From the NCBI GenBank assembly GCA_033852135.1, contig JAWSVB010000014.1:2963-66962 (forward strand): a stretch of 64,000 nucleotides of DNA, written 5' to 3'. Under the pieces are notes generated by a model. That model was given only the letters and a program-made list of their open reading frames with translations. It searched no databases and was not told the origin of the DNA. The DNA comes from Gammaproteobacteria bacterium (GTDB taxonomy: Bacteria; Pseudomonadota; Gammaproteobacteria; QZLD01). Below, piece by piece: positions 45,015-46,535 of this stretch. The first letter of the stretch is position 1. Each line of letters starts with the position of its first letter. Position numbers and translations under genes: made by a program.

Positions 45015-46535
45015 TTGTCACTATTTATGCTTGGAGGTTATCAATTGAAGAATGCCTCAGAAAACAAGAAAACTATCTTGCAGCGCCTTTTTGGTAGTAA
45101 TAAAGATAAAGCCATTGAACCTGGTGTTAAGCCAGATGTAGACCTATTGCAAAATGCTGTGCAGAAAACTGCCAATAGTGTTGGAAAGTTAGCTGTGGAG
45201 ATCGTTGATATATCAGGGCGAGTCGATGTTCTTAGTGCAGAAGTTAGTGAAGAAGCCAAAACCTTTAAAAGGCTGCAAGATATATCTGCAGCATTAATTC
45301 AAAGTAATAACATAGTCGATAATTCGGTACAACGGACAAAAGATGCCGTATCTAAGGCTACGCATAATGTTGATGAATCACGCTCTAATATCAATAACTC
45401 CATAGAAGATATAAAACATCTCACTGAATCAGTAACCGATAACCAGGGGGCGTTAGAACAGATTAATGGAAGCCTTAAGGATGTTTTAAAAATAGCCCAA
45501 TCAATTACAGCAATTTCCAAACAAACTAATTTATTAGCGTTAAATGCGACTATTGAGGCGGCGAGGGCTGGTGAATCTGGCAAAGGGTTTGCCGTTGTCG
45601 CTGATGAAGTTAAAGAATTATCCCGCAAAACAGGTTTAGCTACCGCAAATATTAGCTCTACCCTGAAAACTCTGGCAGGTCAGATTATCTCTTTAGTAGA
45701 AAAAAGCCATGAAGATACTGAAAAAGCAGATGCAGTGCGTAAGGGGGCAGAAAATATTAATGATGTAATTCACCAACTAGAACAGAATATTTCAGAGATC
45801 GATTCTGAATCAAGCGAAATTGTTGATGCAGTTGGTGATATCGATATCCATTGTAAAAACACAGCGGAAGGTTTGGATGATATCTCATCCCAAGTTGATA
45901 AATCGAATGAAAATTTAGCCAGAGCTAAAGATAAAATAAGTTTTCTTCGTAGCTGGACTGAAGAGCTTGTCAGATATACGGTTGTGCCCGGCATAGAAAC
46001 AGTCGATACCCCAATTATATCCCTCATAAAAGAAAAGGCTATGCAGGTTGGTTCTTTGTTTGAAGATGGGATTAAAAAAGGCTTGGTTACAGAGTCAGAT
46101 ATGTTTGACCATAATTATGAACCTATAATTGGAACAGATCCTATTCAGTATCTAACAAGGTTTACAGAATACTGCGGTAAGGTATTACCCGATATTCAGG
46201 AAGATGTTGTTGATAATGAAGAGAGAATCATGTCATGCACAGCAGTGGATGTTAACGGTTATATGCCAAGGCATCTGAATAGGTGTTCAAACCCGCAGAA
46301 ACCAGGGGATGTAACATATAATATGCAAAGCTCTAGGTGGAAGCAGATTTATAAAGATCCTGTCGGAATAGCTGCCGCAAGAAACAATAATGACTTTTTG
46401 CTACAAACTTACAGGATAGCTTTAAGTGAAACTGAATATGCAAATATTAAAGATGTATCTGCACCAATATATATTAATGGAAAACACTGGGGTGCATTGC
46501 GTATCACTTATGATATGCATGTAACTGAAGATTAA
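45015..46535 (+). CDS. soluble MCP-signalling-domain protein with C-terminal Cache-like domain (inverted architecture)
   Basis: MCP motif [31 protein letters not shown] in the N-terminal half. The C-terminal ~200 aa show Cache-like motifs ([10 protein letters not shown]...[18 protein letters not shown]). No TM segments. The true start is possibly ATG 45027 or TTG 45044. Confidence 0.6.

Follow-up and report, generated by a model that had tools for sequence, protein, structure and literature searches.

A soluble gammaproteobacterial chemoreceptor with a Cache-like C-terminal domain outside the existing Cache sequence families

We analysed a gene at 45045..46535 on the forward strand of a 64,000-nucleotide stretch of DNA from Gammaproteobacteria bacterium (contig JAWSVB010000014.1, part of a metagenome assembly), the whole of which is hereafter called the window. 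The gene encodes a soluble methyl-accepting chemotaxis protein (MCP), here called MCP-X, which in its AlphaFold2 (AF2) model amounts to little more than a signalling hairpin followed by a C-terminal domain, here called X. Having no transmembrane (TM) segment and no signal peptide, MCP-X is a class IV (cytoplasmic) chemoreceptor. As modelled, X is Cache-like at the level of the fold, and it is a member of no existing Cache sequence family. We lean towards the explanation that X is a C-terminal Cache-like module which senses a conserved cytoplasmic ligand in this class IV chemoreceptor.

Results

Architecture of the MCP-X protein

The open reading frame (ORF) and the parts of the protein are as follows. 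Residues are counted from TTG 45045 (496 aa).

45015..46535, forward strand: ORF in its longest form, 506 aa, beginning at TTG 45015
45045..46535, forward strand: gene encoding MCP-X, 496 aa when counted from the conserved start codon TTG 45045
45045..45137, forward strand: N-terminal 31 residues (pLDDT about 50 for residues 1-30; hydropathy scan)
45138..45980, forward strand: MCP signalling (MA) domain, residues 32-312 (Pfam PF00015 and AF2)
45981..46007, forward strand: nine-residue linker, residues 313-321, [10 protein letters not shown] (AF2 model)
46008..46532, forward strand: domain X, residues 322-496, with the compact alpha/beta part at 322-490

The full-length AF2 model was built from 60 homologues, has a mean predicted local distance difference test score (pLDDT) of 88.4 and consists of an N-terminus, a helix, a return helix, a linker and an alpha/beta domain. 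The hydrophilic N-terminus (MKNASENKK…) contains no sensor domain and no TM segment, and residues 1-31 are probably disordered as judged from the model. In the MA domain, helices 32-174 and 176-312 are predicted to form an antiparallel coiled coil whose turn at 175 falls inside the tip motif EAARAGE (residues 171-177, positions 45555-45575). The conserved kinase-control tip sequence of MCPs is present ([26 protein letters not shown]), and the arms have 143 and 137 residues, so that the hairpin comprises roughly 40 heptads. In Pfam, MCPsignal matched residues 137-298 of the 506-aa ORF (E 1.1e-29, 103.9 bits, cut-off 34.6), while the full-length chemoreceptor models of NCBIfam gave partial, sub-threshold matches only, over the MCPsignal stretch. 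The maximum 19-residue Kyte-Doolittle mean of MCP-X is 1.09, far below that of a TM helix. In the linker, D321 is nearly invariant in the alignment of the 60 full-length homologues.

A first-pass annotation of the window had described the ORF as a TM-less protein with the MCP signalling domain in its first part and a sensor-like domain behind it, that is, in inverted order. The ORF is as described and contains all three peptides quoted there ([27 protein letters not shown]), and the MCPsignal match, the hydropathy maximum and the modelled order of MA at 32-312 followed by X at 322-490 agree with that description.

Fold and conservation of domain X

By sequence conservation, X is a real and autonomous domain: the C-terminal ~185 aa of the ORF have a best homologue at E 3e-71. 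The domain-only AF2 model of X has a pLDDT of 91.5 and a predicted template modelling score (pTM) of 0.88. It begins with a long helix (322-344), continues with a short helix, two short strands and an 18-residue helix (374-391), and then has a strand (395-402), a conserved insert of ~50 residues with two short helices (403-451) and three long strands across 452-490. The long N-terminal helix together with a PAS-like alpha/beta core is the arrangement by which the Cache/PDC fold is recognised. The structures nearest to X are ligand-binding domains, as listed below.

Structural comparison of X. The value is the figure given in the comparison table.
WalK, 12.5
C. jejuni Tlp3, 11.7
DctB, 10.5
CitA, 10.2
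PctA, 10.0
Mlp24, 9.9

Foldseek with X also returned PAS domains at E 3e-4 to 1e-2. X matched no PAS profile, however, and its best structural neighbours are not PAS domains. When 25 members of the X family were compared singly with Pfam there was no consistent match and no Cache family at E<=1. NCBIfam gave no match over the X region, and neither phmmer with the single X sequence nor hmmsearch with the family profile found anything meaningful in the PDB. A few Geobacter-type copies of X have sub-threshold matches to sCache_3_2 (E 0.007) and dCache_1 (E 0.04), which lend weak sequence support to homology of X to Cache. The Cache-like assignment of the first-pass annotation thus stood where the fold is concerned, through the AF2 model and the structural neighbours, and did not stand as membership of a Cache sequence family. 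Our literature search aimed at domain X returned no description, and automated fold annotation of the Gene3D type may already tag such regions as PAS-like. The X of the window differs from most Cache families in that it is not extracytoplasmic and lies in a TM-less protein after a cytoplasmic MA domain.

Identity was calculated as the mean pairwise value over the 60 full-length homologues, and amounts to 21% in each coiled-coil arm, 62% at the tip and 50% in X. The invariant or near-invariant positions of X are D402, N404, G405, P408, H410, N426, R431, D438, Q454, Y456, R457, K469, S472, P474, H481, W482, G483 and R486; some copies have another residue at H481 (GKAWG, GRKWG). The invariant residues are a polar and charged set that occupies the insert between strands 3 and 4 and alternate positions of the last strands. 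From the topology of the model, these would be the places where PDC domains hold their ligands. In the window, X has PRH for the PTHN of the family, Y for the W of 'WN' and YRIALSET for YRRDMGGG. By these residues MCP-X belongs to a gammaproteobacterial subtype, so that its specificity may differ in detail.

Size and architectures of the X family

The family was collected by exhaustive phmmer with X against 1.84 billion representatives, clusters being taken at 50% identity. A word-indexed search with the single X domain had given only 2 matches, and the exhaustive search was therefore needed. It gave 1746 clusters with X homologues at E<=1e-3, 301 of them at E<=1e-30. Architectures were read from hidden Markov models of X and MA and a hydropathy scan on the best 150 of the 1746 clusters. 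Soluble proteins of about 450-500 aa with MA and then X, as in the window, account for 122 of these 150; nine have TM segments ahead of MA-X, seven are soluble MA-MA-X proteins of ~760 aa (P0045, P0062, P0127, P0128 and P0144 among them), and one is MA-X-MA-X (P0077, 989 aa). In Pfam scans, X was also found after MA in dCache_1-HAMP receptors, in receptors with Protoglobin followed by PilZ, and in receptors with PilZ alone or with Diacid_rec. Fusions of X to an ACT domain and to an M48 peptidase of the membrane also occur.

X also occurs outside the cytoplasmic membrane. The metagenomic protein P0019 (758 aa) has the order TM1-X-TM2-HAMP-MA-X, with a periplasmic X at 22-216 and a second, very similar X at the cytoplasmic C-terminus (564-758). 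P0005 has the order TM-X-TM-X-...-MA, and P0006 is a lipoprotein carrying a tandem pair of X domains. A profile of extracytoplasmic X copies retrieved 3149 proteins, and among the best 120 of these, 68 are TM1-X-TM2-HAMP proteins of ~297 aa from Desulfuromonadales. X is thus mobile and found on both sides of the membrane, and therefore behaves as an input domain.

As an observation in its own right, the abundant ~297-aa Desulfuromonadales proteins with a periplasmic X between TM1 and TM2 end at HAMP and have no output domain. At the two loci inspected (L011 7001-7894 and L012 4237-5130) the X-HAMP gene is the last of a conserved operon with a histidine kinase, a PatA_N response regulator, DUF8082, a 119-aa protein and a ~195-aa protein, with NikR on the opposite strand. 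These X-HAMP proteins resemble the output-less Cache_heme-HAMP receptors (bioRxiv 10.64898/2026.05.25.727664).

Genes of the MA-X type are present in Azospirillum, Skermanella, Caballeronia, Burkholderia cenocepacia, Methylobacterium, Vibrio tritonius and Salinivibrio, where they are annotated solely as 'methyl-accepting chemotaxis protein'. X occurs further in Desulfuromonadales and in uncultured marine gammaproteobacteria. MtpA of Methylobacterium aquaticum is a cytosolic MCP for formaldehyde taxis that was described as having 'only an MCPsignal domain' and no clue to its ligand (PMC10613068). A Methylobacterium plasmid has an MA-X gene (hit H8), and MtpA may be a member of the family.

Several candidates were set aside. 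The 'stand-alone' X proteins P0236 and P0261, considered as parts of a bipartite system, appear to be pieces of MCP-X genes left by a frameshift or by gene calling, and the JGI names on some X hits (FrmR, sigma-54, PAS-ATPase-Fis) are spurious. Amb0994 of Magnetospirillum, considered as a possible relative, is a CetA-like transducer of a bipartite system without a sensor domain (PMC12442639). McpR of Caulobacter has its sensor at the N-terminus and is not relevant.

Gene start and upstream region

Features around the gene are listed below.

44904..45044, forward strand: conserved block of ~140 nt, candidate promoter/leader, with TTGACT at 44907-12 and a perfect TATAAT at 44986-91 (the hexamers are consensus matches only)
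45033..45037, forward strand: Shine-Dalgarno GGAGG, 7 nt before TTG 45045, the same in ortholog L001
46554-46582 and 46590-46612, between the convergent genes: two terminator-like hairpins (consensus scan only)

There are three candidate starts in 45015-45047: TTG 45015, which is the first start codon following a stop; ATG 45027, which is the start in public gene calls and gives the 502-aa version found in public collections; and TTG 45045. In L001, an ortholog from a marine gammaproteobacterial metagenome-assembled genome whose C-terminal domain is 84% identical to that of MCP-X, the start is the equivalent TTG and an in-frame TAA lies just upstream of it. Since L001 has this TAA, and only TTG 45045 is preceded by a good Shine-Dalgarno sequence, sequence comparison indicates that the real start is probably TTG 45045. 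The first-pass annotation had allowed that a corrected upstream start might add TM helices and an N-terminal sensor. Upstream of the gene, however, there is an AT-rich intergenic region of 280 nt and then a gene on the opposite strand, which makes such an extension impossible.

Over the 140 nt before the start, the window and L001 share ~93% identity, compared with 82% for the coding sequence, and the distal intergenic region has diverged. An Rfam search of the block 44904-45044 matched no family. By its conservation, this block may be a promoter, an operator or a leader.

Genomic context and the second soluble chemoreceptor

The MCP-X gene is an orphan among genes for a MatE transporter, a small membrane protein and a PEP-CTERM-like protein. 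Downstream in the window there are CDF, CsoR-type repressor and FeoB genes (47553-51846), which are absent from the L001 locus; they were considered as linked partners of MCP-X and rejected, as they are not kept at the locus of the ortholog. A short MA-X member of the family (315 aa; L007 8001-8948) is embedded in a flagellar cluster, with fliA on one side and flgM/flgA/flgB on the other.

The product of the downstream gene at 46615-47319 on the reverse strand is secreted, carries a PEP-CTERM-like anchor at its C-terminus and matches nothing in Pfam. In L001 the gene is duplicated in tandem (8679-9389 and 9626-10348), in the place of the CDF/CsoR-type/FeoB block of the window. On the same strand, 35436-42695 is an ORF of 2419 aa with a weak PKD-domain match only, which probably encodes a giant adhesin-like or other surface protein.

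The window has a second soluble chemoreceptor.

27650..28753, reverse strand: MCP-CZB chemoreceptor, 367 aa, MCPsignal at residues 116-251 and CZB at residues 260-321

In this protein MCPsignal matched at E 5.9e-33 (114.6 bits) and CZB (PF13682) at E 6.6e-12 (46.1 bits, above the cut-off of 29.4), so that the CZB domain named by the first-pass annotation was recovered. Its hydropathy maximum is 0.98 with no TM segment, and DHHNC…H-x3-H was seen by eye as expected of the zinc site. By its domain matches, the protein is an ordinary MCP-CZB of the TlpD type. The same annotation had called the architectures of both proteins unusual, which holds for MCP-X, where X follows MA and has no curated family, and not for MCP-CZB. 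The hairpin of MCP-CZB is much shorter than that of MCP-X; the two are therefore likely to fall into different heptad classes, and may be part of separate arrays.

Discussion

Under the explanation that we favour, MCP-X would dimerise, enter trimers of dimers and control CheA, with CheW as a presumed partner, through the conserved tip as other MCPs do. Because the hairpin folds back on itself, a domain after the last helix comes to the position conventionally held by an N-terminal sensor or HAMP, and X (~175 residues) would occupy this position at the open end of the hairpin. There it would bind a small polar or anionic cytoplasmic ligand, which could be a central metabolite, a nucleotide or an ion, in a putative pocket lying between the beta-sheet and the insert at 403-451. 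Judged by their chemistry, the conserved residues would favour such a ligand (organic acids, phosphate-bearing compounds or an ion). Binding would move the long N-terminal helix of X and the nine-residue linker, and the shift of the linker would alter the packing of the last MA helix, signalling through this C-terminal helix and biasing CheA control at the tip. The outcome would be a metabolism-dependent input, that is, taxis according to internal state. For the periplasmic copies of X, such a ligand would have to occur outside the cytoplasm as well as in it.

Several results weigh against this explanation. Isolated X had no Pfam match at E<=10, with no Cache family included, and because no Cache or PAS profile matches, it is the fold that speaks for homology of X to ligand-binding Cache domains. 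The strict methylation consensus [ASTG]xx[EQ][EQ]xx[ASTG] has a single match in MCP-X, GALEQING at residues 135-142, which is not a credible site since it lies ~5 heptads from the tip, outside the usual adaptation sites; near-matches (SEEAKT, LEQNIS) were noted by eye only. The check for adjacent cheW and cheA suggested in the first-pass annotation yielded no che gene among the 20 larger ORFs of the window scanned by Pfam, the ~30 smaller ORFs (120-300 aa) having been left out of the scan. The seven related loci have no conserved neighbour gene, one flagellar cluster excepted. The last two points of this kind concern the position of X, which is almost always the last domain, even after PilZ or a second MA, and its conservation. 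Sensor domains usually evolve fast, and a pairwise identity of 50% is unusually high for an input domain.

Position and conservation would also agree with a different role of X, as a cap for protein interaction, dimerisation or localisation at the open end of the receptor. Such a cap could keep the dimer intact where there is no membrane to do so, stack the receptors of sandwich-type cytoplasmic arrays, or serve as a docking site for an adaptation enzyme or some other partner. The C-terminal pentapeptide of Tar and Tsr serves such docking, and folds of the PAS/Cache type commonly dimerise. However, X is found also in a periplasmic sensor position, in a secreted lipoprotein and in fusions to ACT and to an M48 peptidase, and these contexts count against a cap because there is no chemotaxis partner in them. 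Its invariant residues are charged or polar and do not form the hydrophobic patch of a constitutive interface, and the closest structures are the ligand-binding domains listed above. We regard a cap as unlikely, while it is the alternative that survives best.

The invariant His and Asp residues could also mean that X holds a cofactor or a metal and reports redox state, gas or metal availability, in which case MCP-X would be a receptor for energy taxis or metal taxis. Against this, X has no CXXCH motif, and not every copy keeps H481. The conserved set consists mostly of Arg, Lys, Asn and Gln and better suits an anionic organic ligand. Since the metal genes near MCP-X are absent from L001, their linkage is not conserved. 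This alternative appears improbable to us.

That MCP-X serves no flagellar chemotaxis at all, and acts in an alternative chemosensory pathway (type IV pili or other) or as an orphan without a kinase, seems more improbable still: the lack of che genes among the scanned ORFs, the frequent occurrence of soluble MCPs in non-F6 or alternative systems and the likeness of the double-MA relatives to DosM of the Vibrio F9 system, of unknown function (PMC7534058), are in its favour, but missing che neighbours say little because MCP genes are usually scattered, an MA-X relative lies inside a flagellar cluster (L007), and a ~40-heptad hairpin with a canonical tip is typical of gammaproteobacterial flagellar receptors, a link drawn from length alone.

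Returning to X as a module sensing a cytoplasmic ligand, a wider and more tentative idea, to which we give a minor chance, is that X is an undescribed, widespread branch of the Cache/PDC domains that works on both sides of the membrane with one conserved ligand. If so, soluble MA-X proteins would report the intracellular level of the ligand and give metabolism-dependent taxis, receptors like P0019 would compare the concentrations outside and inside in one molecule, and X would explain part of the cytoplasmic chemoreceptors that have no identifiable sensor domain. About one quarter of cytoplasmic chemoreceptors have been reported to lack any identifiable sensory domain (Collins et al. 2014, as cited in PMC10613068).

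As a large, strongly conserved and unannotated input module, X would mark a sizeable annotation gap in cytoplasmic chemoreceptors. A profile of X, once defined, would annotate thousands of proteins of the kind 'MCP, C-terminus unknown', and its ligand, once found, would give access to internal-state taxis in many bacteria. X has the commonest fold of extracellular sensors but is employed mainly in the cytoplasm and behind the output domain, which bears on the accepted view of Cache as an extracellular specialisation of PAS.

Comparison with known systems

The layout of MCP-X is no surprise in principle, since soluble MCPs with C-terminal input domains are known already, as are cytoplasmic domains of the Cache clan. 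Class IV receptors of the TlpD type (Helicobacter pylori TlpD) share with MCP-X the lack of TM segments, the hairpin in first place and the input domain after the last MA helix. They follow the same geometric principle, with the sensor at the open end of the hairpin, and so does MCP-CZB of the window. Their CZB, however, is a small zinc-binding helical bundle with the model PF13682, whereas X is an alpha/beta domain of ~175 residues with no model. DosM of the F9 cytoplasmic arrays (PMC7534058) has two signalling domains like the MA-MA-X relatives, while the window protein has a single MA.

The close known systems for X itself are extracytoplasmic single-Cache/PDC sensors, namely WalK (4ywz), CitA (2j80/8bgb), DcuS (3by8), DctB, Tlp3 and PctA. 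YkuI_C and Diacid_rec are two small, principally intracellular families of the Cache clan (Upadhyay et al. 2016, PMC4822843), from which X differs in sequence family and in partner domains (EAL and CdaR-type regulators in their case), and YkuI_C is structurally further from X than the extracytoplasmic Cache domains are. The soluble PAS chemoreceptors (Aer2/McpB, AerC, BdlA, and VC1406/VCA0864 of V. cholerae) are likewise cytoplasmic with an input domain of the PAS superfold. Their domains are N-terminal, match Pfam PAS and often carry heme or FAD, whereas X is C-terminal, has the long N-terminal helix of the Cache type and matches no PAS model. In the libraries and literature searched, what appears to be new is a domain without a Pfam, NCBIfam or PDB representative that is nearer to extracellular than to known intracellular Cache domains and is used mostly after the output domain.
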